Source: Candidatus Poribacteria bacterium
GTDB lineage: Bacteria; Poribacteria; WGA-4E; PCPOR2b
Direction of reading: 5' to 3'
Assembly: GCA_965218095.1 (NCBI GenBank)
Contig: OZ244587.1
Span: forward strand, 3,488,001-3,552,000
DNA length: 64,000 nucleotides
Each line of letters opens with the position of its first letter. Positions within the stretch are counted from its first letter, which is position 1. Position numbers and translations under genes: made by a program. The notes under the pieces were generated by a model that saw only the letters and a program-made list of their open reading frames with translations, was not told the origin of the DNA and searched no databases. Positions 3,482 to 48,816 of the stretch are shown here, piece after piece.

Positions 3482-3495
3482 AAACGCAGAGGTGA

Positions 3496-26900: not shown

Positions 26901-27645
26901 AGAACATAAAATGATAAAATACGGAATAAAAAAAGGCAATGGTGTTTTTGTCGTACCGAAAGACTTTTTCAAGAGGTTAAACAATTATGAAAAAAACCTG
27001 CTTAGGCCTCTTTATGAACCTAGCGACTTAACCCGATACTTTATAAAAAAACCGAGTTCCAAGGAAATCATTTACATAACAAAGTCCAATGATGACAAAC
27101 AAATACCAATTTTATTAGACCATCTAGAGAAATTTAGAGAGATAATGAACGCAAGAAGGGAAAACAAAAATGGTCGCCTCAATTACTATCACTTGCATTG
27201 GCCGAGAGATGAGTATTTTTTCAAACCAGGTCCTAAAATTTTATCGGTTCGAAAGTGTACTAGGCCAACCTTTACATACACTGAGGAGAGCGCATATGTA
27301 ATGATGGCTATAAACGTCATAAAATCAACCCGATTAGCTACTAAGTATCTTGTAGGTTTGTTAAACTCCAAACTGATTGCTTTTTGGTTAAAACATAGGG
27401 GGAAGATGCAAGGAACAAATTATCAAATTGACAAACAGCCGTTATTAGCAATCCCCTTAATTTCACCTTCATTTGAACAAAAGGCTTCGGTTGAAACTTT
27501 AGTTAATCAAATCCTTGAGGCCAAGTGCGCTGACCCAGATGCGGACACTATCGCCCTTGAAAATGAGATTGATCGGTTGGTATACTCATTATACGATCTC
27601 ACCCCCAAAGAAATCGCTATTGTGGAGGAAGCGGAAAATGTCTGA
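23983..27645 (+). CDS. Type IIG / Eco57I-like N6-adenine DNA methyltransferase with C-terminal TRD, copy 1
   Basis: GSYYTPR, ILDPAVGSGAF (motif I), FDVVIGNPPY (motif IV), TaqI-C-like TRD, tail EIDRLVYSLYDLTPKEIAIVEE. Confidence 0.93.
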   Translation: MNNEEIKKKEEIESALAAIAGGDFLETSMELLAVLGYRSELTDELPETVDGFIEELPARNKNTKTEQEFRDDAESVELVFQVGSDEIAGSQLTLFESRFDEENEDSFMFFTVELKDKDYPRGKYAQFTREVNKRMVMPVVVFFRVENRLTIGFVGRRPNQLDESKDVLEKVTLIKDIRLNDPYRAHKDILFELSLAECAKWMADHNQPKNFDGLLAAWLARLNTEELNKQFYRKLFHWFEWAVEEAKFPTDKNRTLKPEEHVIRLITRLLFVWFMKEKRLVAEELFNETQVSPLLKDYDHDTGDSYYRAVLQNLFFATLNTEIEKRQFSKGGNPGHRNFSRYRYKEQISDPDKLLKLFVQTPFINGGLFDCLDSEAATEGGGYRIDCFSDVHYKKLSIPNRLFFDKQRGLFPLLEHYKFTVEENTPIEQEVALDPELLGKVFENLLAAYNPETGATARKQTGSYYTPRAIVDYMVEEALIAGLTGQVSPTDGNAKFWEERLYYLFDYAKVFDDASEWFDSRESDEVVRAISELKILDPAVGSGAFPMGALHKLTLALRRLDHDNTRWEQLQKERAIQRAADAFDTKDRQSRDEELKEISRIFENYSGNFGRKLYLIQNSIFGLDIQSIACQIAKLRFFISLAIEQKPDRDADNFGIKPLPNLETRFIAANTLIGLEGELTLTSPKAKALEHKLSANRERHFHATTRPQKLACKRDDKKLRRELATELRHIGMPADDADKVADWDPYDQNASADWFDARRMFDVKNGFDVVIGNPPYIKEYTFKHAFDGLRESPYYQGKMDIWYMFACEGIDIIKNGEGVVTFIAQNNWVTSYGASKMRNKIIKDAQVLSLIDFGSFKIFESGIQTMIMIFRKNTDSDSYSFDYRRLHGRDLNINDVMLLLNKSDNSKAEHLTPTIKRSEYAGRSLTFSNSEVELILEKISLKGNLRLNPNKEVAQGIVPNPDVVGTSNLNKIPEHKMIKYGIKKGNGVFVVPKDFFKRLNNYEKNLLRPLYEPSDLTRYFIKKPSSKEIIYITKSNDDKQIPILLDHLEKFREIMNARRENKNGRLNYYHLHWPRDEYFFKPGPKILSVRKCTRPTFTYTEESAYVMMAINVIKSTRLATKYLVGLLNSKLIAFWLKHRGKMQGTNYQIDKQPLLAIPLISPSFEQKASVETLVNQILEAKCADPDADTIALENEIDRLVYSLYDLTPKEIAIVEEAENV

Positions 27646-27756
27646 ATCACGGATTAAACAGATGACGCGGATAGCGCGGATTTCTTGAATCTGTGGCAAT
27701 CTGCGATTCTGACAATGAAGAAATTACTATTGTGGAGGAAAGAGAAGGAAATTATA

Positions 27757-28893
27757 ATGGATGATTTAACTACTTCGCTACTACGGGATTTAGAAGAGGA
27801 AGCCACTGAAGCTAAAGTCGAAACCGAAGAAGCGTGCAACAAAATGCTCAGAGATTTGCACACTAATAACCCCCAACTCATGGCTGCAGAGGTCAAAAAA
27901 CTTAATGATGTGAACCTTACAATGTTCTTTGGCAATAGTTCCGCTGAATCCAAAAGCTGGAAAAAATACCATCACCAATTGGAGGCTCGCCTGCTCAAGC
28001 AGATTTCTTCTGAGGTGGGAAAGTTTCTTAATTGCCCAGTAGAAGCCAGTGAGTTAAAAAAGTACCTGGTAGACTCTAGAAACAAAAACAATGAGTTGAA
28101 TGGAATTGTTCATGGTCCCAAGCGGGAAATTGACAAAGTACGTCAAATCTGCGATGACTTTCAAGTTAGGACTATGACAGAGATACGGGACATGTTTATA
28201 CGAGTTACGATTGAACGCGCTCGTCACATCGGACAGCCCGTCTTACCGGATATTCGTATAACACTACTCTTCCCCACCTCTAGTACGACAAATGTACTGA
28301 TATATCATGCGGAGGCGGATGTAGTGAAGGCGGATTGCATCTATCGTCTACCATCAGTGACACTAGATACCAATGTGGTTCTCTATATGAAGAAAGGAAA
28401 GATAGTAGACCCGCTGGAACTCCGCAAGAAATGCCCGGTGGATTTAGCAGTTACACACCGAATCCGAGAGGATCTGAAACCTTTGCTGTCTGATGAGCAG
28501 TTTCTTACAGATAACTATATTAGAAAAATTCCTTCAATTATGCGCTGTTGTTTCGACAGCCGAAGCGAGCGATTCCTACTTAATCCAGAGTTCGACAAAC
28601 CGGGGAGTACCGAGTTTTTAAAGATGGCCGAATCTATTATTGACGATTTTAAACAAACCGGGGAGAATCCTCCAGAATATCAAGACTGGGATCACCTCCA
28701 CGCCCATTACATGTCTGGGAGAGATTTTTTTCTGACAGAAGATAAAAAAATTCTTAAGATTAATTGTCAGTTAAAAGAATTAGGTATTCGCGTAATGAGA
28801 TTTGAAGAATTCTTAAGATTGATTGAAAAAAATGGGATATTGTTGTATCCAAAAAATCCTGAAAATCCTAAAATCCAGTCAATCCAGATTTAG
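27757..28893 (+). CDS. Hypothetical protein with C-terminal PIN-like domain
   Basis: VTLDTNVV...E...DWDHLHAH...FFLTEDKKIL acidic pattern typical of PIN nucleases. Confidence 0.65.
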   Translation: MDDLTTSLLRDLEEEATEAKVETEEACNKMLRDLHTNNPQLMAAEVKKLNDVNLTMFFGNSSAESKSWKKYHHQLEARLLKQISSEVGKFLNCPVEASELKKYLVDSRNKNNELNGIVHGPKREIDKVRQICDDFQVRTMTEIRDMFIRVTIERARHIGQPVLPDIRITLLFPTSSTTNVLIYHAEADVVKADCIYRLPSVTLDTNVVLYMKKGKIVDPLELRKKCPVDLAVTHRIREDLKPLLSDEQFLTDNYIRKIPSIMRCCFDSRSERFLLNPEFDKPGSTEFLKMAESIIDDFKQTGENPPEYQDWDHLHAHYMSGRDFFLTEDKKILKINCQLKELGIRVMRFEEFLRLIEKNGILLYPKNPENPKIQSIQI

Positions 28894-28907
28894 ACAAAGG
28901 AAAAAGA

Positions 28908-30431
28908 ATGAGCGAACCACTAGAAGTATTCATTACCTATTCACATGAGAACACAGAAGCAAAAGACGAACTCATAACGCGCCTTGCTGTGATGAAGCAA
29001 CAAAATGAATTAGTAACTTGGCACGACAACGAAATGCTTCCCAGTGACAAGTGGCGTGAAGAAATTTTTTCCACGCGCCTTCCCAATTCGGATCTTTTGC
29101 TCTACCTCGTCTCCGCTGCGAGCCTTGCCTCTGAAAACTGCAATAGGGAGTTGGCAGTAGCCTTAGAAAAAAACATAAAACCCATCCCGATTATCCTTGA
29201 GGATTGCGATTGGAAAAAGCATCAACTTGGTGAATTCCAAGCTCTTCCTGACAAAGGCAATCCTATTAACGAGTGGGAATTTAAGAGCAAAGGTTGGCAA
29301 AATGTAGTAGAGGGCATCCGAAAATTCGTTGACGCAATGCAGTCTCAGGTGGATTCGCCTCCCAGTACGCCTGAAGAAGAACTACGCGCTGAATTGGCAA
29401 TCCAACAGGGTAATTTTCTGCTAATGCTCAAGCAAGTAGACAGGGCGATAGAAACCTATTCACGCGCGATTGACCTCAATCCTCGCGCTGCTCATGCCTA
29501 TTATAATCGTGGCAATGTTTACCACAACAAAGGCGAGTTTGGACGCGCCATCACAGATTATACCAAAGCAATAGAATTGAACCCTAATCTTGCGGAAGCC
29601 TACAACAATCGGGGTAATGCTTACATGGACAAAGGCGATTCAGGGAGTGCCATTGCAGACTATAATAAAGCGATACAACTCGACACCAATTGTGCCAGTG
29701 CCTATTACAATCGTGGTGTGGCTTACGGAGAAAAAGGCGATACTGACCGTGCCATCGTAGACTATACCAAAGCGATAGAACTAAATCCTGATTATACCGA
29801 GGCCTATAACAATCGCGGTCTTGCTCACAGTAAGACAGGCAATCTTAATTGTGCCATTGCAGACTATGACAAAGCGATACAACTGCGACCAAATGATGCC
29901 GAAGCCTATAACAATCGCGGTCTTGCTCATAGTAAGACGGGTAATCTTGACTGTGTCATTGAAGACTTTACCAAAGTGATACAACTGCGACCAAATGATG
30001 CCGAAGCCTATAACAATCGTGGAGTGGCATACCACAGAAAGGGCGAAATTAATCTTGCCATTAAGGACTATAACCGGACGATGGATTTGAATCCCGATTT
30101 TGTTGCCAAAGTCTATTGCAATCGTGGCGAGGCGTGGTTACATCTGAGAGAATGGGGCAAAGCCAAATCAGACCTGACTGCTGCCAGAGACATGGGTGTA
30201 GATATCATTACCTCGTTTCATAACGAATACGCAAGCGTCTTGGACTTCGAGCAGAAACACGATGTTCAGCTACCAGCAGACCTCGCCGCCATGCTGACAC
30301 CCCAGGGAGTCGCCATAGGAGAAGAAGTAGAGCGGGAAGCCCCCCATGAATTGGCGAGCGATTTTGAAATCGTCTTAGACGAGATAGTAAGAAAATACGA
30401 TCGAGCATGGAAAACTCTAGCCAAACCTTGA
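28908..30431 (+). CDS. TIR-TPR protein 1 with antitoxin-like C-terminal tail
   Basis: VFITYSHEN...WHD...LVSAASLASENCNREL (TIR, catalytic Glu present), about 8 TPRs, shared cap, tail DEIVRKYDRAWKTLAK. Confidence 0.9.
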   Translation: MSEPLEVFITYSHENTEAKDELITRLAVMKQQNELVTWHDNEMLPSDKWREEIFSTRLPNSDLLLYLVSAASLASENCNRELAVALEKNIKPIPIILEDCDWKKHQLGEFQALPDKGNPINEWEFKSKGWQNVVEGIRKFVDAMQSQVDSPPSTPEEELRAELAIQQGNFLLMLKQVDRAIETYSRAIDLNPRAAHAYYNRGNVYHNKGEFGRAITDYTKAIELNPNLAEAYNNRGNAYMDKGDSGSAIADYNKAIQLDTNCASAYYNRGVAYGEKGDTDRAIVDYTKAIELNPDYTEAYNNRGLAHSKTGNLNCAIADYDKAIQLRPNDAEAYNNRGLAHSKTGNLDCVIEDFTKVIQLRPNDAEAYNNRGVAYHRKGEINLAIKDYNRTMDLNPDFVAKVYCNRGEAWLHLREWGKAKSDLTAARDMGVDIITSFHNEYASVLDFEQKHDVQLPADLAAMLTPQGVAIGEEVEREAPHELASDFEIVLDEIVRKYDRAWKTLAKP

Positions 30432-30844
30432 AGTATTTGACAATTGAGGACATTCTGAGGGTTGCCAAGGGGCAGGTGGGTAGCTATCAGTTGTTGAATG
30501 AAAATCAGTTACACTATTTGGTTGAAATAGTCGGTGAAAAATTAGGTGATACAGAACTGTTTCCGACTTTGCCCAAAAAAGCTGCTGTATATGCCCATCA
30601 CATTATTACTGGACATATATTTTCCGATGGGAATAAACGTATCGGCCTGACTTGTGCGCTCGCGTTTTTAGTTTTGAATGGCTGTTCTCTTCATCGCAAC
30701 ATTGATGATTCGATTATTGAGCTTGGCTTTAAGATTGCGGATGGGACGATAACCGATCTGGAGATAATCGCCGAGGATTTACAATCATGGATTCAGCGAC
30801 AGACGTATGAATCGGTTGTATTTACATTAGATCCGTTTAACTGA
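30428..30844 (+). CDS. doc: Death-on-curing (Doc/Fic family) toxin
   Basis: MKYLT.EDI, LFPTLPKKAA, HIFSDGNKRIG. The TTG start overlaps the upstream TGA (TTGA). Confidence 0.88.
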   Translation: MKYLTIEDILRVAKGQVGSYQLLNENQLHYLVEIVGEKLGDTELFPTLPKKAAVYAHHIITGHIFSDGNKRIGLTCALAFLVLNGCSLHRNIDDSIIELGFKIADGTITDLEIIAEDLQSWIQRQTYESVVFTLDPFN

Positions 30845-31042
30845 GGGCGGAAATTGTCAGAATCGCGAATTAGACCGGAGTTGACACAGGTTACGCTGTT
30901 TTAATCCGTGGCAATCTGTGATTCAGACAACGCAGAAATCTCCCTTGTGGAAAAACCGCCGCCCTGAAATCCTGAGAATCCTAAAATCCAGTAAATCCAG
31001 ATTCAGACAATGAGGAAATCGCCATTGTGGAGAACAAAAAGT

Positions 31043-32485
31043 ATGGCAAAAAAAGAGCCGCGCCGTGTCAAAACTCTGAGCGAGTTTATAGAATGGGCAG
31101 CACAATTCAGGGACGGACGATATCTGTTTCGTGGTGTTTCAAACGACGCCTACAAAATAGAGGCATCTGCTTACCGCCGCCTGCGAGAAGCGGACAGAAA
31201 TAATCCGAGTAAGCTACTCAAAATCAATCAGGAATTGATAGAAAAAGCACGAGGTCGGGGACACGATCAGAAAAACGGTCAGCGACTATCCGATCTGGAA
31301 CTACTTGCAGAACTTCAGCACTTCGGCGCAGCCACCTGCCTGATAGACTTTACACGCAGTGCATTGGTCGCGCTCTGGTTTGCCTGCCAACAAAGTGCCA
31401 AGGGAGAAGCAAACGGTAAAGTATTCGCTGTCCGTAGCGATGATCCGGCACGCTTGAAAACGGTTAATCCGGAATTGATAAAAAAAGATATTGACCACTT
31501 TCTCAACTTGGATGAAAACGATAACTATCTGCTATATCAATGGGATCCCAAACTTCAGAATAATCGCATCATCGCCCAGCATTCAGTTTTCCTATTTAGC
31601 GGTGCCCAAATTGAAGCAGAGGCTGAATGTGTAATCATAAAAAGTAGCAAGCAAGACATCCTGACATCTCTGGATAAAATATCAGATATCGCTGAAGAGA
31701 GTATTTATCCTGACTTTGACGGCTTCGCTCGCGTACATGCCCACGATAAACCCTACATTGAACCCAACGCCCACGGCTATCTGCGACGCGGTATTGAGGC
31801 ACAGCAAAATAATAATCTGGATGATGCTATCGCCTACTACACTGAAGTCATACGGTTAGAGCCGGACCCCGGCATTGTTGCCAATGCCTGTTACAATCGC
31901 GGCGTGGCTTACAGGAAAAAGGGAGATTATGACCGTGCCATTGCAGACTATACCAAAGCGATAGAACTCAATCCCTATTATGCCAACGCCTATAACAATC
32001 GCGGCGTGGCTTACAGGAAAAAGGGAGATTATGACCGTGCCATTGCAGACTATACCAAAGTGATAGAACTCCAACCCAATTATGCTATAGCCTATATCAA
32101 TCGCGGCGCTGCTTACGGGGAAAAAGGTGATTATGACCGTGCCATCGCAGACTTTATCAAAGCGATAGAACTCAATCCCTATTATGCCAACGCCTATAAT
32201 AATCGCGGCGTGGCTTACAGGAAAAAGGGAGATTATGACCGTGCCATTGCAGACTATACCAAAGCGATAGAACTCAATCCCTATTATGCCAACGCCTATA
32301 ACAATCGCGGCGTGGCGTGGTTACACCTGCAAGCATGGGAAAAAGCCCAAGCCGACCTGACGACTGCCAAAGATATGGGGAGGGATATCACTGCTTCATT
32401 TCATAACGATTACACAAGCGTCCCAGACTTTGAGCGGAGAAATGGGGTTAAGCTACCGGCAGACCTTGCTGCCATGTTGCTTTGA
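31043..32485 (+). CDS. FRG-TPR protein 1
   Basis: YLFRGV, LAELQHFGAATCLIDFT...ALWFAC, NNRIIAQHSVF, IYPDFDG; near-identical 102-bp TPR repeats; shared cap. Confidence 0.9.
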   Translation: MAKKEPRRVKTLSEFIEWAAQFRDGRYLFRGVSNDAYKIEASAYRRLREADRNNPSKLLKINQELIEKARGRGHDQKNGQRLSDLELLAELQHFGAATCLIDFTRSALVALWFACQQSAKGEANGKVFAVRSDDPARLKTVNPELIKKDIDHFLNLDENDNYLLYQWDPKLQNNRIIAQHSVFLFSGAQIEAEAECVIIKSSKQDILTSLDKISDIAEESIYPDFDGFARVHAHDKPYIEPNAHGYLRRGIEAQQNNNLDDAIAYYTEVIRLEPDPGIVANACYNRGVAYRKKGDYDRAIADYTKAIELNPYYANAYNNRGVAYRKKGDYDRAIADYTKVIELQPNYAIAYINRGAAYGEKGDYDRAIADFIKAIELNPYYANAYNNRGVAYRKKGDYDRAIADYTKAIELNPYYANAYNNRGVAWLHLQAWEKAQADLTTAKDMGRDITASFHNDYTSVPDFERRNGVKLPADLAAMLL

Positions 32486-32639
32486 ATCTCCCGATAAATC
32501 GGGATTCTCGGAACGGAACCGATCTTATCGGGGCTGACACCCGAGCGATAAGCATCACGCCGACGAGTCTTTTTGAATCCGTGTCAGCCGTTAATCCGCG
32601 ATAATCCGCGATTTTGACAATGATACATACTAACATAAC

Positions 32640-33334: not shown

Positions 33335-33348
33335 ATAACATACAAATA

Positions 33349-33882: not shown

Positions 33883-33962
33883 AACACAAACGAAAATTCT
33901 AGCTTAAGCAATTAAATTTCAATCAACAGATCGCGCTTTAATATCCGTCGGGAGAGTTGATT

Positions 33963-36900
33963 ATGAACCAACACAGAGCCGCCATCACGAACGCCCTAAA
34001 CCGCTTCACCGATGGGAGTCTCGCTGAAAACGCACGAAACCTGCTAAATACACTCGGCTATGGGAGCGAAAGAGCCCTAGCCCTTGAACCGAACACCGCC
34101 GACGCGTTTATTGACGCGTTCGATCTACAAGAGAAACTGAATCACGATAAGGCACTGACGACAGAGTGGGCGTCCATCAATCCGCTTTTCCAACTCAGAG
34201 GTGAGGACTTGACGCGCACAGATATAGACGGATGGCTTTTCGATCCCAGCCAGACGCAGGTAGATAACACCATCATCGAGTCCTACCTTTTCCTCGCGCT
34301 CTGGTTGGACGGAAGCAATTACAACCGCACCCAACTCTCGCAAATCACCCGCGAAATCAACAAACTGTTCCCGATGCCCGCGATGCTGCTCTTTCAGCAC
34401 GGCAACACACTCACGCTGTCGGTTATCAACCGCCGTTTGGGTGTACGCGACCAATCCCGCGATGTCCTCGAAAAAGTAACCCTCATCAAGGATATTGATT
34501 TCAAGGATACCCACTGTGCGCACATCGATATTCTATTCGATCTCGCCCTCGAACCGTTGAATCAAACGCACGGCGTCCACAACTTTGTTGAACTGCATCG
34601 CGCTTGGGAAAAGACACTGGATACCGAAGAACTCAACAAGAAATTCTACCGGGATCTGTTCGACTGGTTTGAACGGGCGGTTGCTGAAGGAAAGTTTCCG
34701 ACAGACAAAAATCGCACTTTGAAGCCAGAGGAGCACGTCATCCGCTTAATCACGCGCCTGCTGTTCGTCTGGTTTATGAAGGAAAAGAGGCTGGTTGCGG
34801 AAGAACTGTTCAACGAGACGCAAGTTTCCCCCTTACTGAAAGACTACGACCGCGACACCGGCGACTCCTACTACCGCACGGTGCTACAGAACCTGTTTTT
34901 CGCCACACTCAACACTGAGATAGAGAAGCGTCAGTTTAGCAAAGGGGGAAACCCAGGACATCGCAACTTCTCATTGTATCGTTACAAGGATGAGATAACC
35001 GACTCCGATAAACTCCTAACACTGTTTGCCCAAACGCCATTTATCAACGGCGGTTTATTCGATTGCCTTGACAGCGAGGAGGCAACACGAGATGGTGGCT
35101 ACCGCATTGACTGTTTTTCCGATGTGCATTACAACAAGCTAAGCATTCCCAACCGTCTTTTCTTTGACAAACAGCGCGGTCTGTTTCCCCTGCTGGAACA
35201 CTACAAGTTTACTGTCGAAGAAAATACACCGATAGAGCAGGATGTCGCGTTGGATCCGGAACTGCTTGGTAGGGTGTTTGAAAACCTGCTTGCCGCGTAT
35301 AATCCCGAAACCGGCACAACGGCACGGAAACAGACAGGTTCTTATTACACCCCGCGCCCCATCGTGGACTATATGGTGGATGAAGCGTTAGTGGCAGTGT
35401 TATCGCAAAAGTGCAACCTGGCCGAAGACTGGTTACGGTCTCTACTTGATTATACGCAGATGTCCGACAATGGCAAAAAGTGGTCTGATAACCCTGAAGC
35501 CGACTGCGTTGTGAAGGCGATTTCCCAACTCAAGATACTGGATCCGGCGGTCGGTTCAGGTGCTTTTCCGATGGGGGTACTGCACAAACTGACCCTTGCG
35601 CTGCAGAGGTTGGACCTAGATAACAGCCGGTGGGAGAAGCTACAGAAAGAACGTACCATCCAGCGGGCGGCGGCTGCGTTTGATACAAAGGATAGACAGA
35701 CACGCGATGAAGAGCTCAAGGAAATTAGCAGAATCTTTGAAAATTATTCCGGCAACTTCGGGCGGAAGTTGTATCTGATCCAAAACAGCATCTTCGGCTT
35801 GGACATTCAATCCATCGCCTGCCAAATCGCTAAACTCCGCTTCTTCATCTCCCTTGCTATTGAGCAGGAACTGGATAGAGATGCAGACAACTTCGGGATT
35901 AAGCCTCTGCCGAATCTGGAGCCCCGCTTTATCGCGGCAAACACGCTAATCGGTCTCGAAGAAGAGCGAACCCTGACAAGCCAAAAAGCGAAAGTTTTAG
36001 AGGGGGAATTGGATGATAACCGTGAGCGGCATTTCCACGCAACGACACGCCCGCAGAAACTAGCGTGTAGGAGAGAGGACAAAAAATTGCGGCGAGAATT
36101 GGCGACGGAATTAAGGCATATCGGTATGCCCGCCGATGATGCGGATAAAGTTGCCGACTGGGACCCCTACGACCAGAATGCAAGTGCGGACTGGTTTGAC
36201 TCGAAATGGATGTTTGGTATCACAGACGGGTTTGATGTGGTGATTGGAAATCCACCGTACCGGCAAGTCCACAAGGGCGTACATTCAGCGGCTCAGTTTC
36301 CTTATTCGGAGGGTAGAGACAAAGGCAAGCAAAATCTTTATAAACTATTTGTGGAGCAGTCATACAACCTTTGCAAACGGCGCGGGGTGGTCACTCTCAT
36401 CGTGCAAAGCAGCTTGATGTGCGACCTTTCGTCCGCCGTGACTCGTCAACTTCTGCTGGAACACACACAGTTGAAACACATCATTGAGTTTCCAAAGACA
36501 GCGCAGTCACGGGAGGTACAAGTTTTTACAACCGTGACACAAGGCACCTGTATCTATCAGTTTACTAAAGCTTTGCCCAATGGTGAACCTATCAAAATTT
36601 CGGTGGGCAACGATGCTCATAGCATTGCAGATTTGAGATTCTCCGCTATTACTAAAGAAGCGATTATGAATTTGTATCCAGAACTACGATACTTTCCACA
36701 TATCGGAGAAGGCAGTGTTTCCATTCTGGAGAAAATCGCTGACGACGAAACCATTAATCCTCTGAAGCATTACATTGCCGATATCATCCAAGGCGATCTC
36801 AATCTGACCACACATTCCTCTCGATTTTCTCGGGTGCCTTCGGCTGTGCGTCTTTTGCGCGGATGGCACGTAAATCGTTTCGTTGTTAAGTATGATGACG

Positions 36901-37388
36901 CAGACGAATATTGCGAAGAGGGATTTATGGTAGACAAGGTTGCAGCCAACAGAAGCAGCACTTTTCTGATTTGTCAGCAAATAACAGGCACGGTTGACCT
37001 CCGACGCTTACACTTTGCTTTGACCGCAAACCCATCAACAGATTTTCTGTGGGGTAATAGCGTCAACAAAATGCTGTTGAAAAACTGGGCGCATAGCAAG
37101 ACGGTCTTGGCATTGCTCAACTCCAAATTTATGGATTGGTTTTTTCGTATCACTTCGACAAATAACCATGTACAGGGTTACGAATTGGAACAACTACCCA
37201 TACCGGTAATGTCTGATGATAACCGTGAAAAACTCAACAATCTGGCAGGGCAAGTTATGGAAGCCAAACGCACCGACCCGGACGCGGATGTATCCGAACT
37301 TGAAAATAAGATTGACCAGATAGTATACTTGTTATACGGTCTTGACGCTGATGAAATTGAGATTGTGGAGGAGGCGGAAAATGTCTGA
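33963..37388 (+). CDS. Type IIG / Eco57I-like methyltransferase, copy 2 (different TRD)
   Basis: Same motifs as copy 1; core near-identical at DNA level, unrelated after NPPY (36249-36260), same IVEEAENV end. Confidence 0.93.
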   Translation: MNQHRAAITNALNRFTDGSLAENARNLLNTLGYGSERALALEPNTADAFIDAFDLQEKLNHDKALTTEWASINPLFQLRGEDLTRTDIDGWLFDPSQTQVDNTIIESYLFLALWLDGSNYNRTQLSQITREINKLFPMPAMLLFQHGNTLTLSVINRRLGVRDQSRDVLEKVTLIKDIDFKDTHCAHIDILFDLALEPLNQTHGVHNFVELHRAWEKTLDTEELNKKFYRDLFDWFERAVAEGKFPTDKNRTLKPEEHVIRLITRLLFVWFMKEKRLVAEELFNETQVSPLLKDYDRDTGDSYYRTVLQNLFFATLNTEIEKRQFSKGGNPGHRNFSLYRYKDEITDSDKLLTLFAQTPFINGGLFDCLDSEEATRDGGYRIDCFSDVHYNKLSIPNRLFFDKQRGLFPLLEHYKFTVEENTPIEQDVALDPELLGRVFENLLAAYNPETGTTARKQTGSYYTPRPIVDYMVDEALVAVLSQKCNLAEDWLRSLLDYTQMSDNGKKWSDNPEADCVVKAISQLKILDPAVGSGAFPMGVLHKLTLALQRLDLDNSRWEKLQKERTIQRAAAAFDTKDRQTRDEELKEISRIFENYSGNFGRKLYLIQNSIFGLDIQSIACQIAKLRFFISLAIEQELDRDADNFGIKPLPNLEPRFIAANTLIGLEEERTLTSQKAKVLEGELDDNRERHFHATTRPQKLACRREDKKLRRELATELRHIGMPADDADKVADWDPYDQNASADWFDSKWMFGITDGFDVVIGNPPYRQVHKGVHSAAQFPYSEGRDKGKQNLYKLFVEQSYNLCKRRGVVTLIVQSSLMCDLSSAVTRQLLLEHTQLKHIIEFPKTAQSREVQVFTTVTQGTCIYQFTKALPNGEPIKISVGNDAHSIADLRFSAITKEAIMNLYPELRYFPHIGEGSVSILEKIADDETINPLKHYIADIIQGDLNLTTHSSRFSRVPSAVRLLRGWHVNRFVVKYDDADEYCEEGFMVDKVAANRSSTFLICQQITGTVDLRRLHFALTANPSTDFLWGNSVNKMLLKNWAHSKTVLALLNSKFMDWFFRITSTNNHVQGYELEQLPIPVMSDDNREKLNNLAGQVMEAKRTDPDADVSELENKIDQIVYLLYGLDADEIEIVEEAENV

Positions 37389-37486: not shown

Positions 37487-37885
37487 ATAAGCAACAATCT
37501 AAAATACAGGGATATCACCGAAAAGATTATTGGGGCTGCTTTTGAGGTACATAAGTTTTTAGGAAACGGCTTCCAAGAGGTGATTTATCAGCGAGGATTG
37601 GCGTTTGAGTTAGCACAAGCGGGTTTGGCATTTACGCGTGAAATTGAGCAAGACATTTTCTATAAAGAGTTGCCGGAGCCTATAGGCACGCGTCGAGCAG
37701 ATTTCGTGGTCGAAGAAAAAGTGTTGGTGGAATTGAAGGCTATCTCTGAATTGGAAGATGTACACATAGCCCAGGCATTAAATTATTTGAAGGCATATCG
37801 GCTGGAAGTAGGTTTATTGATCAATTTCGGATCTAAAAGATTGATATTCAAAAGATTGATTCTTTCGCAACCGGATCACGGCTGA
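37487..37885 (+). pseudogene. GxxExxY protein with start codon mutated (ATG>ATA)
   Basis: Same length (399 nt) and nearly the same sequence as 42263-42661, but CAAATAATAAGC replaces CAAATAATGAGC. Confidence 0.75.
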
Positions 37886-38224
37886 TGTAGATAACGCCGA
37901 TTTAATCTGTGTTCTCCTTGAATCCGTGACAATCTGCGATTCAGACAATGAGGAAATTGGGATTGTGGAGGATGGAGTGGGGAAACTATCTGAATCACGG
38001 ATTAAACAGATGACGCGGATAGCGCGGATTTTTTAATCTGTGTCCTCCTTTAATCCGCGATAATCTGCGATTCAGACAAAGAAGGAATCGCCACAGTGGA
38101 GAAACCACCGCTCCGCTCCGCTTGGATAGCGATATCCAAGCGATATAGGGATAAGAAACGATACCTCCCAAAATCCTGAAAATCCTAAAATCCAGTGAAT
38201 CCAGATTCAGACAGAGGAAAGAGA

Positions 38225-39616
38225 ATGAGCGAACCACTAGAAGTATTCATTACCTATTCACATGAGAACACAGAAGCAAAAGACGAACTCATAACGCGCC
38301 TTGCTGTGATGAAGCAACAAAATGAATTAGTAACTTGGCACGACAACGAAATGCTCCCCAGTGACAAGTGGCGTGAAGAAATTTTTTCCACGCGCCTTCC
38401 CAATTCGGATCTTTTGCTCTACCTCGTTTCCGCTGCGAGCCTTGCCTCTGAAAACTGCAATAGGGAGTTGGTAGTAGCCTTAGAAAAAAACATAAAACCC
38501 ATCCCGATTATCCTTGAGGATTGCGATTGGAAAAAGCATCAACTTGGTGAATTCCAAGCTCTTCCTGACAAAGGCAATCCTATTAACGAGTGGGAATTTA
38601 AGAGCAAAGGTTGGCAAAATGTAGTAGAGGGCATCCGAAAATTCGTTGACGCAATGCAGTCTCAGGTGGATTCGCCTCCCAGTACGCCTGAAGAAGAACT
38701 ACGCGCTGAATTGGCAATCCAACAGGGTAATTTTCTGCTAATGCTCAAGCAAGTAGACAGGGCGATAGAAACCTATTCACGCGCGATTGACCTCAATCCT
38801 CGCGCTGCTCATGCCTATTATAATCGTGGCAATGTTTACCACAACAAAGGCGAGTTTGGACGCGCCATCGTAGACTATAACAAAGCGATAGAACTCAAAC
38901 CCGATTATGCCGGTGCCTATTACAATCGTGGTGTGGCTTACGGAGAAAAAGGCGATACTGACCGTGCCATCGCAGACTATAATAAAGCGATACAACTCGA
39001 CACCAATTGTGCCATGGCCTATTACAATCGCGGTAACGTTTACATAGACAAAGGCGATGTTGGTTGTGCCATCGTAGACTATACCAAAGCGATAGGACTA
39101 AATCCTGATTATACGGAAGCCTATTACAATTGGGGTAATGCTTACTACAACAAAGATGAGTTTGACTGTGCCATCGTAGACTATACCAAAGCGATAGAAC
39201 TGAATCCTAATCTTAGGGAGGTCTATAACAATCGCGGTCTTGTTCACGGTAACACAGGTCATCCTGACCGTGCTATTAAAGATTTTACCAGAGCGATAGA
39301 ACTGGATCCTAATTATACCGGAGCCTATTACAATCGCGGAGTGGCATATTACAAAAAGGGCGATTTTGAGCGCGCCATTGAGGATTTTGACAAGGCTTTA
39401 CAACTGAAACCTGATTATGCCATGGCCTATGGCAATCGCGGCGAGGCATGGTTACACCTGAGAGAATGGGAAAAAGCCAAAGCAGACCTAATGGAGGCCA
39501 GAGTCATGGGGATAAATATCATCGCTGTGTTTCGTAACGACTACGGAAATGTTGCGGACTTCGAGGGTAGAAACGGGGTTAAGCTGCCGGCAGACATCGC
39601 CGCCATGTTGCTTTGA
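38225..39616 (+). CDS. TIR-TPR protein 2 (no antitoxin-like tail)
   Basis: First ~640 nt almost identical to the 28908 gene; TPR units differ afterwards; ends AAMLL. Confidence 0.9.
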   Translation: MSEPLEVFITYSHENTEAKDELITRLAVMKQQNELVTWHDNEMLPSDKWREEIFSTRLPNSDLLLYLVSAASLASENCNRELVVALEKNIKPIPIILEDCDWKKHQLGEFQALPDKGNPINEWEFKSKGWQNVVEGIRKFVDAMQSQVDSPPSTPEEELRAELAIQQGNFLLMLKQVDRAIETYSRAIDLNPRAAHAYYNRGNVYHNKGEFGRAIVDYNKAIELKPDYAGAYYNRGVAYGEKGDTDRAIADYNKAIQLDTNCAMAYYNRGNVYIDKGDVGCAIVDYTKAIGLNPDYTEAYYNWGNAYYNKDEFDCAIVDYTKAIELNPNLREVYNNRGLVHGNTGHPDRAIKDFTRAIELDPNYTGAYYNRGVAYYKKGDFERAIEDFDKALQLKPDYAMAYGNRGEAWLHLREWEKAKADLMEARVMGINIIAVFRNDYGNVADFEGRNGVKLPADIAAMLL

Positions 39617-41392: not shown

Positions 41393-41547
41393 ATCTCCCG
41401 ATAAATCGGGATTCTCGGAACGGAACCGATCTTATCGGGGCTGACACCCCAGCAATAAGCATCACCGTCGGCGGGTCTTTTTGAATCCGTGTCAGCCGTT
41501 AATCCGCGACAATTCGCGATTCTGACAATGATACATACCAACATAAC

Positions 41548-42248: not shown

Positions 42249-42262
42249 ATAACATACAAATA

Positions 42263-42661: not shown

Positions 42662-42907
42662 CGCAGATAACGCCGATTTAATCCGTGTCCTCCTTTAATC
42701 CGTGACAATCTGCGATTCAGACAGTGAGGAAATTGGGATTGTGGAGGAGGCCACGAATTGCGTGTGTAAATTGTCTGAATCAGGATTTTCAGGATAGAAG
42801 GATAAACAGGATAAGAAAGGATGCGTCCAAAAACCCTGAGAATCCCCAAATTTTGTTGCCGACAATACACCACACTGAAGGACAGGAGGGAAAGGAAGAA
42901 ATTTTTG

Positions 42908-44536
42908 ATGGAAGAAATAAACTGGGAAATTCCGAGAATATCGGACGATCCAATAAAACTAACGCTAAAGAGTGGTGATCAATTATTCATCATAGGAGCT
43001 AATGGTTCGGGGAAATCGGCGTTAATACAGCGATTTGTTTCGGAGAATAGAGGCAACAGGGTTAAGCGGATAGCTGCACATAGACAAACATGGTTCGACT
43101 CAGGAAGCATCGATCTTACACCCGCAGGGCGCCAAGAACATGAGACAGACACGCTAAACTACAATAGAAACAATGAAGCTCGATGGAAGGATCTCAGGGG
43201 GGGCGAGGGTTTATCTGTTGTCTTATTTGACTTGATTGCTAAAGAAAACGCTATTAACAAGTCTATTGCTCGCCATGTACGTAATCAAGATACTGACCAA
43301 GCATTAGAGTTTTCTGCTGAATCGCCATCGCCGTTCGATCAGATAAATGAGTTGCTTGCTCGCGGCAGACTGACGGTTACGATCGAAAACTCTGATGACC
43401 AGAATCTACTCGCAAGGCACCCACAGGGGGAGCCCTTCAGCATTGCAGAAATGTCAGATGGCGAACGGAACGCAATGATCATCGCAGCGCACGTTATTAC
43501 GGCTGAACCTGAAACGGTGTTCGTGATCGACGAACCGGAAAGACACCTCCACCGATCCATTATCCAGCCATTTCTCTCGGCGTTGTTCGCCCTAAGAAGG
43601 GAGGACTGTACATTTATTATCGCAACCCATGAGATCGCACTGCCGGTCGCCAACCCGGATGCACAAGTTCTCATGCTCCGATCATGCCAGTGGAGCGGTA
43701 AACAATGCCATGCTTGGGATGCCGAAGTCTTGAAGCCGAACTCTGAACTACCGGAGGACCTCAAACTCGCAATCTTGGGATCCAGAAAAAGGATCCTCTT
43801 CGTGGAAGGCCAGCTTGGCAGTTCAGATTTTTCACTCTACACTACTCTCTTTTCCGGACTTTCCGTGATCCCAAAGGAGAGTTGTGAGGAGGTCCAAAAG
43901 GCGGTGCTTGGGTGGCGAGGATCTCAAGAAATCCACCCTGTACATGTAGAAATATTTGGACTCATTGACCGAGATAACCGGACAGACGAGGATGTAAAGG
44001 AACTTGCCAAAAAGGGTGTATTCGCTTTAGAAGTGTATTCGGTTGAAGCTCTCTACTATTGCTCAGACGCTATTGCTGCTGTTGCTGAACAACAAGCAAA
44101 ACTCCGTGATGAAGATGAAAGTAAACTCATCGAGTCGGCCAGGCAAAAGGCAGTTGGTGTTCTGAAAGGCCACGCGGAGGAAATGGCGGCGCGGATGTGC
44201 GAACGCCAAATACAAAAACTCACTCTGTCGAAAATTCCGGGCTGGAAGTCAATTAAGGATAACCCAACTCAACCAATCAGCGTATCTATTGATCCAATAG
44301 CCTATTCTGAGGAGCTTAATTACTTCGATAAACTTGTCGATGATGAATACCTAGATCAACTTATTGCCCGTTACCCAGTGCATAAAAGCTGCGCTCTTAC
44401 AACTATCGCGAAAACCCTCAAATGCTGCGATAGAAACGACTATCAGCAGATAGTTCTCGCCCAAATTCAGAAAGACAGTCAATTGGCTTGCAAGTTCAAA
44501 GAGCGTATTGGCCTACTTTCTGAAACACTGGATTAG
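42908..44536 (+). CDS. ABC-type ATPase fused to a TOPRIM/DUF4435-like domain (OLD/PARIS-like defence protein)
   Basis: GANGSGKS, MSDGER, IDEPERHLH, ATH, followed by ILFVEG...D and GLIDRD. Confidence 0.85.
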   Translation: MEEINWEIPRISDDPIKLTLKSGDQLFIIGANGSGKSALIQRFVSENRGNRVKRIAAHRQTWFDSGSIDLTPAGRQEHETDTLNYNRNNEARWKDLRGGEGLSVVLFDLIAKENAINKSIARHVRNQDTDQALEFSAESPSPFDQINELLARGRLTVTIENSDDQNLLARHPQGEPFSIAEMSDGERNAMIIAAHVITAEPETVFVIDEPERHLHRSIIQPFLSALFALRREDCTFIIATHEIALPVANPDAQVLMLRSCQWSGKQCHAWDAEVLKPNSELPEDLKLAILGSRKRILFVEGQLGSSDFSLYTTLFSGLSVIPKESCEEVQKAVLGWRGSQEIHPVHVEIFGLIDRDNRTDEDVKELAKKGVFALEVYSVEALYYCSDAIAAVAEQQAKLRDEDESKLIESARQKAVGVLKGHAEEMAARMCERQIQKLTLSKIPGWKSIKDNPTQPISVSIDPIAYSEELNYFDKLVDDEYLDQLIARYPVHKSCALTTIAKTLKCCDRNDYQQIVLAQIQKDSQLACKFKERIGLLSETLD

Positions 44537-44720
44537 GTAGAAAACCCGCAAACCGAATAGTTAGAACCTCCATTTTTAACCCAAGTTCGTCGCTTCCAGA
44601 TCCTCTCCAGCATCAAACAGGATGCGTATCTCGTCTGCTCTGTGAAATTTGGTTGACACCTATTCACCGAAAGATTATTATGACACCAAAAGAAATTCGC
44701 ATCGTGAAGGAGAAGAAGTC

Positions 44721-46268: not shown

Positions 46269-46671
46269 TCCAAGAGAAAGACTCAGTCGTTTCGTACTGA
46301 GCAGAAATGAGTTTCGTCCTTCTGATCAGACTGTTAGGCCTAAAGCATTTATCCCGCCAAAAAACAAACGGTTGTCCGTTTACCGTACCTCAACACTGAG
46401 CGAAGACGAGATTTGGTCAACTGGTAACGAGTTTGTCGCTGAACCGAGAGGTAAGACCCTTTACGGTCGAGCAGACCTTTTGGCACAAGATGTTTACGCT
46501 CTCCGGCAAAAGGTTGAACCAGAAACTTCTATACATCCTTTACATGCTGATATTATACTGTGGCCAGACGGACGGGACGACATTTTATTTTTGGCAACTC
46601 AACTCGTACTACGGTCGAAATTCGTTTCAAGAACGTCATCCCCGAACGCTTTAGTCGGGGACGGGAAATGA
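46258..46671 (+). CDS. Small hypothetical protein, possible ADP-ribosyltransferase-like toxin
   Basis: Overlaps the upstream stop; R...AF.P....LSVYR...HADI pattern resembles ART/Tse2-like folds (from recall). Confidence 0.5.
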   Translation: MIIDPRERLSRFVLSRNEFRPSDQTVRPKAFIPPKNKRLSVYRTSTLSEDEIWSTGNEFVAEPRGKTLYGRADLLAQDVYALRQKVEPETSIHPLHADIILWPDGRDDILFLATQLVLRSKFVSRTSSPNALVGDGK

Positions 46672-46731
46672 GATTAATCAACTGATACACTTAATACAAC
46701 TTAACTCCTGAAGAAATTGCCATTGTGGAGG
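46665..46731 (+). pseudogene. Decayed 3' end of a Type IIG methyltransferase gene
   Basis: AATGAGATTAATCAACTGATA...TACAACTTAACTCCTGAAGAAATTGCCATTGTGGAG reads NEINQLI..YNLTPEEIAIVE, compared with NEIDRLVYSLYDLTPKEIAIVE in copy 1. Confidence 0.7.
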
Positions 46732-46958
46732 ATTGGGTGGGTAAATTGTCTGAATCAGGATTTTCAGGATAAGAGAGGATTGGTCGCCATCTCAACTCGA
46801 CGAGCAAAAGAATCCTGAAAATCCAGTGAATCCAGATTCAGACAATTGCGAGGATAAGGTATCGCCGATAACGGGTCTTTTTGAATCCGTGTCATCCTTT
46901 AATCTGCGGCAATCCGCGATTCAGACAATGAAGAAATTACCATTGTGGAGGACAAATC

Positions 46959-48698
46959 ATGAACTCACAAAACGACCTAAGCAAAATTAGGGAAAAAATC
47001 AGCGAGATAGAGGAAAAATCAGCCAACGGCGACTATATCTACCGCGGCGAACCTGAATGTTATGAGAAAGTCTCCTCGAACCTCTACCGCCAATACGAGA
47101 AAGAAATTGAGGCGGAGCACTTTGATATAGAGGTTGTCCAAACAGAAATTCTGAACGAGGCTAAGAAATATGCCCGCGAGACCGACAACGAATTTGAAAT
47201 CATGCCCCAACTCCAACACTGCGGAGGTAAAACTAACCTGATAGACTTTACGACCGACTACCTGATAGCGCTCTTCTTCGCCTGTGATGGCTTTCTTGAC
47301 AAACCCGGTAGGGTTATCTTGTTGGGAGAAAGAGCACGGAGAGAAAACCAAGTCGAGGAACCTCCGAATCCAATAAATCGCGTCAAAGATCAGAAGAGTA
47401 TATTCGTTCAACCGCCCAAGGGCTTTATTGAACCAGAACTAGACAATATAATTGATATTCCCAAATGCCTCAAACAGCTCATGTTAAACCACTTGGAAAA
47501 GTACCACCGCATATCTACCGAAACCATCTACAATGACCTTCATGGATTTATTAGAAATCAGGACCTCCATCAAAGCGCCTACACGGAGTTTTTTAAAGGT
47601 TTGACGTGTCAAAAGAGAAAGCAGTATGATAAAGCCATTGAGCATTATACCACAACGATAGAACTCAAACCTAATTATGCCGAGGCCTATAACAATTGCG
47701 GCATTGCTTACCGCAACAAAGGCGAGATTGACCATGCTATCGAAGACTTTAACACAGCGATAGGACTCAAACCTGATTATGCCGAGGCCTATAACAATCG
47801 CGGCATTGCTTACCGCGACAAAGGCGAGATTGACCATGCTATCGAAGACTTTAACACAGCGATAGAACTCAACGATTATGCCCCGGCCTATAACAATCGC
47901 GGCAATGCTTACCGCAACAAAGGCGAGATTGACCATGCTATCGAAGACTTTAACACAGCGATAGAACTCAAACCTAATTATGCCCCGGCCTATAACAATC
48001 GCGGCATTGTTTACCACGACAAAGGCGATTTAGAACGCGCTATCGAAGCCTATACCAAAGCGATAAAACTCAACAATTATGCCCCGGCCTATAACAATCG
48101 CGGCACTGCTTACCACGACAAAGGCGATTTAGAACGTGCTATCGAAGACTATAACACAGCGATAGAACTCAAACCACACCTTGCCGAGGTCTATTACAAT
48201 CGCGGCAATGCTTACCGCAACAAAGGCGAGATTGACCATGCTATCGAAGACTATACCAAAGCGATAGAACTGAATCCCGATTATGACGAGGCCTATAACA
48301 ATCGCGGCACTGCTTACAACGACGAAGGCGATTTTGACCACGCCATCGAAGATTTTAACAAAGCGATACAACTCAAACCATACTTTACCGAGGCCTATAA
48401 CAATCGCGGGGTGGCTTACGGCAAACCGGGTGAGTACGCCCTTGCCATCGAAGACTATACCAAAGCGATAGAACTGAATCCCGATTATGCCATCGCTTAT
48501 AACAATCGCGGTGAGGCGTGGTTACACCTGCAAGAATGGGGTAAAGCCAAAGCCGACCTGACGACTGCCAAAAACATGGGGGTGGATATTATCACAGCGT
48601 TTCGTAACGACTACGTAGACATCTCGGACTTCGAGCAGAGAAATGGCGTCGAGTTACCGAAAGACATCTCCGCAATGCTAAGGCGACCGCAGACATGA
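46959..48698 (+). CDS. FRG-TPR protein 3
   Basis: YIYRGE, LQHCGGKTNLIDFT, ALFFACD; about 10 TPRs, including two 33-aa units; shared cap. Confidence 0.9.
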   Translation: MNSQNDLSKIREKISEIEEKSANGDYIYRGEPECYEKVSSNLYRQYEKEIEAEHFDIEVVQTEILNEAKKYARETDNEFEIMPQLQHCGGKTNLIDFTTDYLIALFFACDGFLDKPGRVILLGERARRENQVEEPPNPINRVKDQKSIFVQPPKGFIEPELDNIIDIPKCLKQLMLNHLEKYHRISTETIYNDLHGFIRNQDLHQSAYTEFFKGLTCQKRKQYDKAIEHYTTTIELKPNYAEAYNNCGIAYRNKGEIDHAIEDFNTAIGLKPDYAEAYNNRGIAYRDKGEIDHAIEDFNTAIELNDYAPAYNNRGNAYRNKGEIDHAIEDFNTAIELKPNYAPAYNNRGIVYHDKGDLERAIEAYTKAIKLNNYAPAYNNRGTAYHDKGDLERAIEDYNTAIELKPHLAEVYYNRGNAYRNKGEIDHAIEDYTKAIELNPDYDEAYNNRGTAYNDEGDFDHAIEDFNKAIQLKPYFTEAYNNRGVAYGKPGEYALAIEDYTKAIELNPDYAIAYNNRGEAWLHLQEWGKAKADLTTAKNMGVDIITAFRNDYVDISDFEQRNGVELPKDISAMLRRPQT

Positions 48699-48816
48699 AT
48701 GTTGACAGACAGATTAACCTCCGAGGAAATTGCCATTGTGGAGGAAGCCCTTGAAAGAAAATTAACCTGATGATTACGCCGCCAAATTTCAAAAATTGGT
48801 GTAGGAGGATAAATCC

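Follow-up and report, generated by a model that had tools for sequence, protein, structure and literature searches.

How did a row of co-oriented defence genes become chained to the 3' end of one methylase gene? The question is raised by an island in the genome of Candidatus Poribacteria bacterium (assembly GCA_965218095.1), located within a stretch of 64,000 nucleotides of contig OZ244587.1 (positions 3,488,001 to 3,552,000 of the forward strand). This stretch is called the window below, and positions refer to it unless the genome or another locus is named. The genome is a single contig of 6.35 Mb with 50% G+C; the phylum is known chiefly from uncultured symbionts of sponges, and the present genome is probably that of such a symbiont too. 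A cyanobacterial origin was rejected, since the genome has no match to the photosystem reaction-centre profile Photo_RC and no excess of HIP1 (156 copies, with ~97 expected). An earlier reading of the letters alone (the sequence-only reading) described the island as an integron-like array, in which cassettes are gained and exchanged at the conserved tail of a Type IIG methylase gene marked by a short recurrent motif. The motif array is real, and the array of genes is a conserved, cassette-like structure which is not an integron. With a probability of roughly 0.55 it arose behind a Type IIG-like methylase gene through the insertion of palindromes and through recombination between repeats.

Copies of the methylase tail within the island

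The two methylase genes of the island, methylase 1 (23983..27645, + strand) and its paralogue methylase 2 (33957..37388, +), are 85.6% identical in nucleotide sequence over 1665 nt and carry different specificity domains. Both code for an Eco57I/N6_Mtase catalytic region and a TaqI_C specificity domain above the Pfam cut-offs, and methylase 1 also matches the PADLOC profile REase_MTase_IIG (E 1.5e-66); judged by these domains, both can be classed as Type IIG-like restriction-modification enzymes. They share the C-terminus ..LY.L...EI.IVEEAENV*, which in methylase 1 reads ...LYDLTPKEIAIVEEAENV*. The part of it coding for EIAIVE corresponds to the 19-nt motif GAAATYGCCATTGTGGAGG, located at 27610-27628 in methylase 1 and at 37353-37371 in methylase 2.

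With up to three mismatches the motif occurs ten times in the window, always on the + strand and within 27610-48744 (at 27610, 27720, 31015, 37353, 37953, 39754, 42729, 46713, 46933 and 48726). The chance expectation is 0.05, and ten matches were reached by none of 100 shuffled sequences. Three degenerate copies (30935, 38084 and 39894) stand in the same register of a 39-88-nt repeat family and complete the approximately 13 copies counted earlier. In the whole genome 9 of 11 copies with up to two mismatches, and 10 of 25 with up to three, are found inside the island. One real outlier is located at genome position 5326546(-), within a second methylase-linked island. Composites of a palindrome end, 5 nt and the motif number nine in the genome, all within these two islands.

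The intergenic motif copies are, to judge from their reading frames, relics of methylase 3' ends, carried with the cargo genes as a leader and probable ribosome-binding site (RBS). The majority of them stand 5 nt behind the right end of a palindrome. The first relic (27715..27764, +; motif 27720-27738, a match of the composite pattern) reads ..EEREGNYNG*, its TGA (27762-27764) being five bases past the ATG (27757) of a gene for a 378-aa protein. A long relic tail with the motif at 46713 reads YNLTPEEIAIVEDWVGKLSESGFSG (it begins *YNLTPEEIAIVEDWVGKL..) and keeps ~50 nt of the upstream tail. It opens a block (46665..46951, +) that continues with a 96-nt palindrome (46748-46843), a right palindrome arm and the motif copy 46933; the latter reads EITIVEDKS* and its TGA overlaps the ATG (46959) of an FRG-TPR gene. 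The outermost relic (48713..48770, +; motif 48726-48744) reads LTSEEIAIVEEALERKLT*, likewise keeps part of the upstream tail and precedes a 105-aa open reading frame (ORF). Stop/start overlaps of the ATGA type are still legible at 27757-27764 and 46959-46962, and the intact arrangement is seen in a relative (locus L022), where a live methylase gene has the end ..EIAIVEAAEKERK* and shares bases of its TGA with the ATG of an immediately following TIR-TPR gene. These overlaps indicate that the effector genes were once translationally coupled to the methylase.

The distance from the GGAG of the motif to the following ATG is 10 nt for the start at 31043 and 7 nt for that at 46959, and GAGG stands 7 nt ahead of the GTG at 39919, in accordance with the RBS role suggested for these three starts in the sequence-only reading. 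The leader of the gene at 31043 (GTGGAG-RACAAAAAGT-ATG) recurs in locus L019. The flanking repeats had also been described correctly: GATTCAGACA precedes the copies at 27720, 30935, 31015, 37953, 38084, 39754, 42729 and 46933, while those at 27610, 37353, 37953, 42729 and 46713 precede TCTGAATC. A role of the motif copies themselves as recombination sites finds no support in the present analysis. In the methylase gene of one relative (L039 11665-11682) the motif's first GAA is replaced by TAA, and the last ~12 residues are lost. A complex predicted between residues 150-507 of the TIR-TPR protein (13-row alignment) and the last 110 methylase residues (29-row alignment) scored 0.00, which is evidence neither way.

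Alignment of 29 homologous methylase C-termini demonstrates that the last ~32 codons (27547..27645, +, in methylase 1) are frozen in their nucleotide sequence. The choice among synonymous codons is variable in columns 14-93, where one leucine column contains six codons with a top share of 0.32, and is near-invariant over the last ~32 codons (CTT in 28 of 28 sequences, GTA in 21 of 21, ATA in 21 of 21 and TTA in 23 of 29). The same codons are rare in five genes of the window, with a usage of 0.13, 0.14, 0.19 and 0.09, respectively. They spell a promoter-like TTGAAA-18-TATACT, flagged by the consensus scan at 27557-27586 and 37300-37329, which is followed by the motif with its GGAG and, in methylase 1, by a TGA inside the left end of the palindrome. 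Two families conserve the frozen block, and a third conserves part of it. Such freezing of synonymous sites points to a DNA signal embedded in the coding tail, and this signal probably serves the expression of the downstream genes: the last ~100 nt of the methylase gene would be constant in DNA because they contain a promoter-like site and an RBS, and the tail may act as both. Spread of the tail by recombination is an alternative explanation of its constancy.

A dispersed palindrome at the cassette borders

Both methylase genes terminate in the left arm of a palindrome (GTC TGA ATC). The palindrome has the ends TGTCWGAATC and GATTCWGACA, arms composed of runs of AATCYGYG or AATCC iterons, and a length of ~74 to 197 nt. 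The copy behind methylase 1 (27640..27713, 74 nt, GTCTGAATC...GATTCTGAC, with AATCYGYG iteron arms) has a twin behind methylase 2 (37383-37456). Their single-strand folds have energies of -18.5 kcal/mol (z -2.9) and -20 kcal/mol (z -6.3), respectively, and that of the 96-nt palindrome 46748-46843 has -25.1 kcal/mol (z -6.0). The location of gene stops inside palindrome arms, proposed earlier for further genes as well, holds for the two methylases: the Doc stop is 11 nt ahead of an arm, the GxxExxY stops precede a right-arm segment, and the stop of the gene for a 137-aa protein, previously called PIN, abuts a relic tail with no palindrome there.

In the spacers of the array (all read on the + strand) whole palindromes, single arms and motif copies follow one another. 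The spacer 30856..31033 is formed by a palindrome (30856-30928), the degenerate motif 30935, a right arm of a second palindrome type and the motif 31015-31033. Empty units occupy 37904..38213: a right arm with the motif 37953, a palindrome (37988-38077) with the degenerate motif 38084, and a second-type right arm up to 38213. The spacer that begins at 39705, ahead of a frameshifted FRG-TPR gene, contains a right arm, the motif 39754, a second-type arm and the degenerate motif 39894, and the spacer 42680..42820 consists of a right arm, the motif 42729-42747 and the left arm of the second palindrome type.

The palindrome is not confined to the island: of its 15 strict copies 5 are found elsewhere in the genome, and so are 35 of the 48 sites with GATTCAGACA. 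An even spread of the motif as part of a generic miniature inverted-repeat transposable element (MITE), which the sequence-only reading had named as evidence against itself, is not observed: the motif is concentrated in the island, and it is the palindrome that is dispersed. At the methylase-to-TIR-TPR junction of five related genomes there is no insert in L022, one element in L039 and L037, and two units (palindrome, degenerate tail copy and second-type arm) in L043 and L033; this allelic series of zero, one and two units identifies the palindrome as a discrete insertion. It is short and non-coding, possesses terminal inverted repeats, has many dispersed copies and is represented by both empty and filled sites; no consistent short target-site duplication was found at it (AAT or AATT is possible). 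The element is MITE-like, occurs throughout the genome and has an empty site that can be demonstrated.

The possibility that the palindrome as a rule duplicates a long target was considered and rejected, because among the 11 complete copies of the genome only that behind methylase 1 has long matching flanks (score 18); two tandem copies at an hsdM/hsdS locus score 9.5-11 and the other eight, three island copies included, 4.5-6. The Rfam search at gathering thresholds in the window and two relative loci returned only five clustered tRNA genes at 2792-3481 (- strand), and so the repeats are explained by no known RNA family.

The junctions were counted for 239 palindrome ends on both strands of the window and 36 loci of relatives. 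The motif follows within 30 nt in 57 of the 239, at offsets of 5 nt (43), 6 nt (2), 9 nt (1) and 23/24 nt (11), and on the other side the distance from motif to palindrome is 5-25 nt. TIR-TPR genes, a small ORF, GxxExxY genes and a promoter-like block also open right after a palindrome end with leaders of their own, and the number of cassette types that begin directly behind GATTCWGACA is at least six. The motif ahead of one FRG-TPR type has decayed in one genus, GGAG included. The junction classes thus make the palindrome end, more than the motif, the general cassette border. Being few and widely copied, they fit a small number of founding joins spread by duplication and recombination, and the joining of palindrome and tail at several offsets does not fit a single fixed crossover point.

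About half of the array goes back to a ~10-kb block, duplicated in tandem long ago, which includes the second methylase gene. The block comprises methylase, TIR-TPR, FRG-TPR, a non-coding block and GxxExxY at 85-88% identity. In the self-comparison it appears as the pairs 24645-26309 and 34616-36259 (85.6%), 28853-30296 and 38170-39610 (87%), and 31893-33478 and 40800-42392 (87.7%), along with a younger segment, 37478-37972 and 42254-42748 (95.8%). Owing to this duplication the independent cassette events are fewer than the motif copies.

Related genomes contain the same elements. The motif is present in 46 of 61 of them, with 0-2 matches per genome for the reversed-pattern control. Fifteen genomes contain the composite, out of 159 in the order and 176 in the phylum (control 0). 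All of them belong to one order, and they are found in one genus (11 of 20 genomes) and as single genomes in two other families. A homologue of methylase 1/2 lies upstream on the same strand within 14 kb in 16 of 20 relative loci that were chosen solely for carrying the composite; among the remaining loci two are without a methylase, a third has a distant Eco57I-like gene and the fourth is truncated at the end of its contig. The same kinds of cargo are met again in these loci, though not in one order (TIR-TPR, both FRG-TPR types, Doc, GxxExxY, the 137-aa protein, an AriAB-like protein and a small 'MRKAD' ORF), and this like architecture with differing gene orders agrees with the proposed gene stacking at the restriction-modification tail. 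One relative has 35 motif copies, mostly in tandem arrays behind four methylase paralogues (L013 5980-7430 and 13519-14690, L014 8800-10150, L015 7050-8700, L016 4800-5450), whose ~154-nt unit, repeated 7-10 times, consists of the last ~18 methylase codons and a 100-nt palindrome. The same relative has one three-copy tandem array without a methylase within 5 kb. The exact composite pattern had no matches in the public metagenome-contig and viral-contig collections and was found in two records of the genome-contig collection.

Breakpoints were compared in four loci of one genus (L023, L031, L034 and L040) that share both flanks at 80-93% identity. In four of the six pairs the specificity domain of the methylase is swapped, with a homology break ~1120-1135 nt upstream of the tail. 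In both pairs that share a specificity allele the breakpoint is inside the first palindrome after the tail. L023 and L040 are 92.8% identical across the whole methylase gene, and their homology ends at a distance of 43-46 nt from the closest end of a palindrome; that of L031 and L034 extends for 12 nt inside the palindrome. The position of an FRG-TPR cassette in L023 is occupied by two empty units in L040, and a TPR cassette of L040, flanked by ~50-nt palindrome-arm repeats, is absent from L023. The specificity region (approximately residues 870-1050) is swapped as a block among the paralogues of the window (24645-27500 and 34616-37300) as well as among these four orthologues, and is flanked by the conserved N-terminal 870 and last ~35 residues of the methylase.

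Origin of the array

These data can be brought together in the following scheme. Ancestrally, effector genes such as TIR-TPR and FRG-TPR would have been translationally coupled to the methylase, whose last codons (..EEIAIVE..) would carry the GGAG of an RBS and whose stop would overlap the next start. The small MITE-like palindrome (TGTCWGAATC...GATTCWGACA) would insert repeatedly at and around this tail. Duplication and homologous or unequal recombination between the repeats, that is palindromes, tail relics and 102-nt TPR units, would stack and swap the genes, with every gene retaining a piece of the methylase tail as its leader. The joining would be performed by general recombination and not by a dedicated enzyme.

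Several observations weigh against this scheme. The tail is duplicated on both sides of the palindrome (27610 and 27720), and a junction of ~20 nt is duplicated at the hsdM/hsdS locus; neither is explained by simple MITE insertion, and a process duplicating long targets is possible. Conserved termini with variable interiors, and at least six cassette types after one terminus, are also the signature of a site-specific system. The counts of the promoter and terminator scan are at or below those of shuffled sequences, and the spacer positions of the promoter-like block are frozen too, although a promoter alone does not need them. Finally, a palindrome end or motif is found no more than 40 nt away from 43 of the 116 alignment-block ends, as against 20% of the array positions, but this enrichment is partly circular because the repeats themselves end alignments.

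The signature just mentioned would be left by a dedicated cassette system with attC-like palindromes, a frozen tail acting as attI and promoter, and an enzyme encoded elsewhere that captures and excises cassettes. It would account for co-oriented genes split by 74-197-nt imperfect palindromes with conserved ends, for the cassettes that begin right after GATTCWGACA, for the nucleotide-frozen tail, for the tandem 'empty' units and for an architecture common to three families. The genome is rich in transposases and could supply a trans-acting enzyme: profile searches gave 8 matches to Phage_integrase (PF00589), 2 to Resolvase, 32 to rve, at least 152 to DDE_Tnp_1 and 4 to Y1_Tnp. None of these profiles matches in the window, as stated earlier for the integrase, and no transposase of the genome lies there. 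In five relatives no tyrosine recombinase adjoins an array, with the exception of a Xer-like gene ~10 kb from one of them, and three array-bearing relatives have only 2-3 tyrosine recombinases per whole genome. The palindromes were compared with attC (RYYYAAC ... GTTRRRY) using 85 candidates picked by GTCWGAATC ... GATTCWGAC with up to one mismatch, some of them chance pairs in genes; tested by termini alone, no array palindrome ends in GTTRRRY, and the earlier denial of attC sites stands. Together with the palindrome-motif distance, which varies on both sides, and the free decay of the motif ahead of one FRG-TPR type, this makes a dedicated system rather unlikely. A shade less credible still is an independent invention of integron logic for immune genes, in which the frozen ~100-nt tail would be docking site, promoter and RBS in one, the iteron-armed palindromes would be the cassette-borne sites, and an enzyme encoded elsewhere or the GxxExxY nuclease would do the reshuffling.

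The GxxExxY gene could also be a selfish element in its own right, a homing-type nuclease that cuts methylase 3' ends, the repair copying the gene with its palindromic flanks, duplicating the junction and seeding arrays. All four GxxExxY copies of the genome are located just after a methylase end, three in this island and one between hsdM and hsdS, each embedded in palindromes. At genome 4218950-4219760 (L051 3458-6984) a Type I hsdM/hsdS pair is interrupted by the GxxExxY gene and three palindrome copies, and the ~20-nt junction AATTTTGGAGGA..CGGTGT is found on both sides of the insert, so that the hsdM end and the start signals of hsdS are both preserved. This arrangement keeps the nuclease-driven model alive, and 9 of the 36 loci examined in relatives contain homologues of the gene. 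On the other hand, the majority of the cassettes and of the tail copies have no GxxExxY gene as neighbour, and the relative with the largest tandem arrays has none in the four loci read. A literature search on GxxExxY returned nothing on its function, no nuclease activity or target being known for the family, and the model is improbable on the whole. The chance that the array is an assembly collage of strain variants joined across repeats is smaller yet and, in our opinion, very slight. In its favour, the record probably represents a metagenome-assembled genome, repeats abound in the island (TPR units, palindromes, 96-98% identical duplicated blocks), and public short-read contigs break at these repeats, none of them bridging a cassette; most of the joints listed fall in TPR repeats and have sides shorter than 35 nt, and many loose contig ends at 39842/39882 and 42009 speak only of dispersed-repeat status. 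Against a collage stand the single 6.35-Mb contig, the like architecture of several other single-contig genomes and the identity of the duplicated blocks, mostly 85-88% and not near-identical. In addition, the short Logan contigs of public runs from three studies contain near-identical pieces of the island (0-5 differences).

Cargo genes and comparison with known systems

Domains were assigned by Pfam, NCBIfam and PADLOC, with tblastn and Protein Atlas clusters as a further check. All cargo genes are on the + strand, and the earlier description of the cargo as co-oriented, defence-like and tied to the methylase 3' end is upheld by gene calls and domain matches. Upstream of methylase 1 lies a gene for an HKD (PLD) nuclease fused to an SNF2 helicase (20438..23779; Pfam PLDc_2, SNF2-rel_dom and Helicase_C; PADLOC C3a139 'HKD+Snf2', E 3e-113). 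Its homologues (~80% identity) precede the methylase in L021, L027, L028, L036 and L039, and the protein is presumed to be the restriction partner of the methylase. The first half of the array continues with the 378-aa protein (27757..28893), which has no Pfam, PADLOC or NCBIfam match and in the Protein Atlas falls only into unnamed clusters at 0.90. Next come a protein with a ThsB-like TIR domain and seven TPR repeats (28908..30431; Pfam TIR_2 and TPR_1; PADLOC ThsB, E 4e-23) and a Fic/Doc-family protein whose gene overlaps the end of the TPR gene (30407..30844; Pfam Fic, NCBIfam DOC_P1); this TPR-Doc pairing is repeated in L017, L020, L021, L027, L028, L039 and L042. They are followed by an FRG-TPR protein (31043..32485; Pfam FRG and TPR; PADLOC PDC-S15, E 1e-32) and a GxxExxY fragment (33349-33882; Pfam PDDEXK_3).

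Behind methylase 2 the order is GxxExxY (37487..37885; PD-(D/E)XK_3 by Pfam PDDEXK_3, NCBIfam TIGR04256 and tblastn), a second TIR-TPR gene (38225..39616), 79% identical to the first in amino acids and placed directly after a palindrome end and GAGGAAAGAGA, and an FRG-TPR gene split into two overlapping frames (39898-40626 and 40565-41392), probably by a frameshift. The second GxxExxY copy (42263-42661; Pfam PDDEXK_3) is followed by an AriAB-like (PARIS-type) ATPase with DUF4435 (42821..44536; Pfam AAA_21 and DUF4435; PADLOC AriAB, E 4e-59), a TPR protein (44649-46268), the 137-aa protein (46258-46671), whose gene overlaps that of the TPR protein, and a second-type FRG-TPR protein (46959..48698; Pfam FRG and nine TPR repeats). 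The PIN label given previously to the 137-aa protein could not be verified by Pfam, NCBIfam or PADLOC, which return no match, and the Protein Atlas places it only in unnamed clusters; its homologues occur in the arrays of L023, L031, L037 and L040. The 105-aa ORF (48817-49134) has a paralogous unit at genome 5.326 Mb, and beyond it lies a gene for a Gfo/Idh/MocA oxidoreductase, where the G+C content rises. With this oxidoreductase as query tblastn finds 59 matching stretches in the genome. The second island (genome 5318001-5337500, L052) contains an Eco57I/MmeI-like methylase, two copies of an insertion sequence, DUF5131, an AAA_21 ATPase and a PLD-SNF2-like gene; the only composite outside the window stands there ahead of the paralogue of the 105-aa ORF.

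The TPR genes of the array (28908-48698) and their relatives share 102-nt repeat units with 60-87% nucleotide identity and a conserved ~193-nt 3' end, and differing N-terminal domains (TIR, FRG or none) stand ahead of one TPR-Doc arrangement, which suggests domain shuffling inside the TPR repeats. In both halves of the array a non-coding block sits between FRG-TPR and GxxExxY (32640-33340 and 41540-42250, 98% identical in part, starting after a palindrome end). It contains a promoter-like TTGAAC-16-TATAAT (32905-32932 and 41819-41846), a strong hairpin and a 78-codon ORF which looks spurious. The summed contig depth of its bins is 1416-5153 in four public runs, compared with tens to hundreds elsewhere, so that part of the block is a high-copy repeat.

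Defence islands are usually described as loose neighbourhoods, while here the genes are chained to one methylase 3' end, and three families of the same order show the pattern. It offers a concrete way, open to experiment, for immune genes to be stacked and exchanged where no integrase is seen, and it suggests that effectors of the TIR-TPR and FRG-TPR types cooperate with the methylase operon or are under its control in their expression. The palindrome end together with the motif represents a sequence tag that finds such arrays directly.

Integrons and CALINs (clusters of attC sites lacking integron-integrases) likewise consist of co-oriented genes that follow a fixed platform, the possible source of a promoter, and have between them imperfect palindromes (~60-140 nt) whose ends are conserved. 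Cargo on one strand and TTGAAA-18-TATACT in the tail would agree with a platform promoter, although the scan counts are not above shuffles. In contrast to integrons the array has no adjacent IntI, its palindromes end in TGTCWGAATC/GATTCWGACA instead of RYYYAAC/GTTRRRY and are also scattered through the genome, and its platform is the coding end of a methylase gene. The term 'integron-like' thus describes the layout and not the mechanism.

MITE and repetitive extragenic palindromic (REP) sequences, Correia repeats and the 'minimal mobile elements' of Neisseria are many-copy inverted repeats flanking strain-variable, exchangeable blocks of genes. The palindromes of the array are similarly small, non-coding and numerous, with empty and filled sites, and differ in being concentrated at the methylase tail and fused to a leader derived from it; no target duplication or cognate transposase was identified for them. 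Tn7 at glmS, islands at the ends of tRNA genes and icd, and cis-mobilisable elements growing by accretion duplicate a gene end, leave the gene intact and form tandem arrays with direct repeats. Here, too, insertion takes place just past or inside a conserved gene end, but there are no TnsABCD-type or integrase genes (rve has no match in the window and 32 elsewhere in the genome), and the boundaries of the repeats are variable instead of forming one identity block. As in defence islands nested with restriction-modification systems, a ThsB-like TIR, a PARIS-like AriAB, Doc and a candidate PDC-S15 are clustered with a methylase and HKD-SNF2; here the genes are chained to the tail by repeats and former coupling, for which adjacency alone is insufficient. 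Literature searches (supplements being outside their scope) found no methylase-tail array described in the text available from the sources, only general papers on the enrichment of defence genes in sponge symbionts.

[quoted passage not shown] As far as the consulted part of the publication goes, the downstream modules open there with a fragment of the main gene encoding VENN, have variable upstream homology, are co-transcribed with the main gene and extend from motif to motif (PMC3150448); recombination at the VENN-coding sequence is proposed and its mechanism called unknown (PMC3150448; Poole et al. 2011). Both patterns have co-oriented modules behind a main gene, a short conserved peptide (VENN there, EIAIVE here) and retained upstream homology of variable length. 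The modules at 27720, 31015, 37953, 42729, 46713, 46933 and 48726 open, in the same manner, with a fragment of the main gene encoding the conserved motif. The main gene here is an Eco57I/TaqI_C methylase instead of cdiA or rhs, with the motif at its extreme C-terminus. In place of toxin C-termini and immunity modules without start signals, the modules are full genes with their own start codons, not toxin domains for loading onto the main protein; they include no immunity genes, are separated by MITE-like palindromes, and their motif would double as an RBS. The array would thereby extend the 'orphan module' principle of CDI and Rhs systems to restriction-modification systems.

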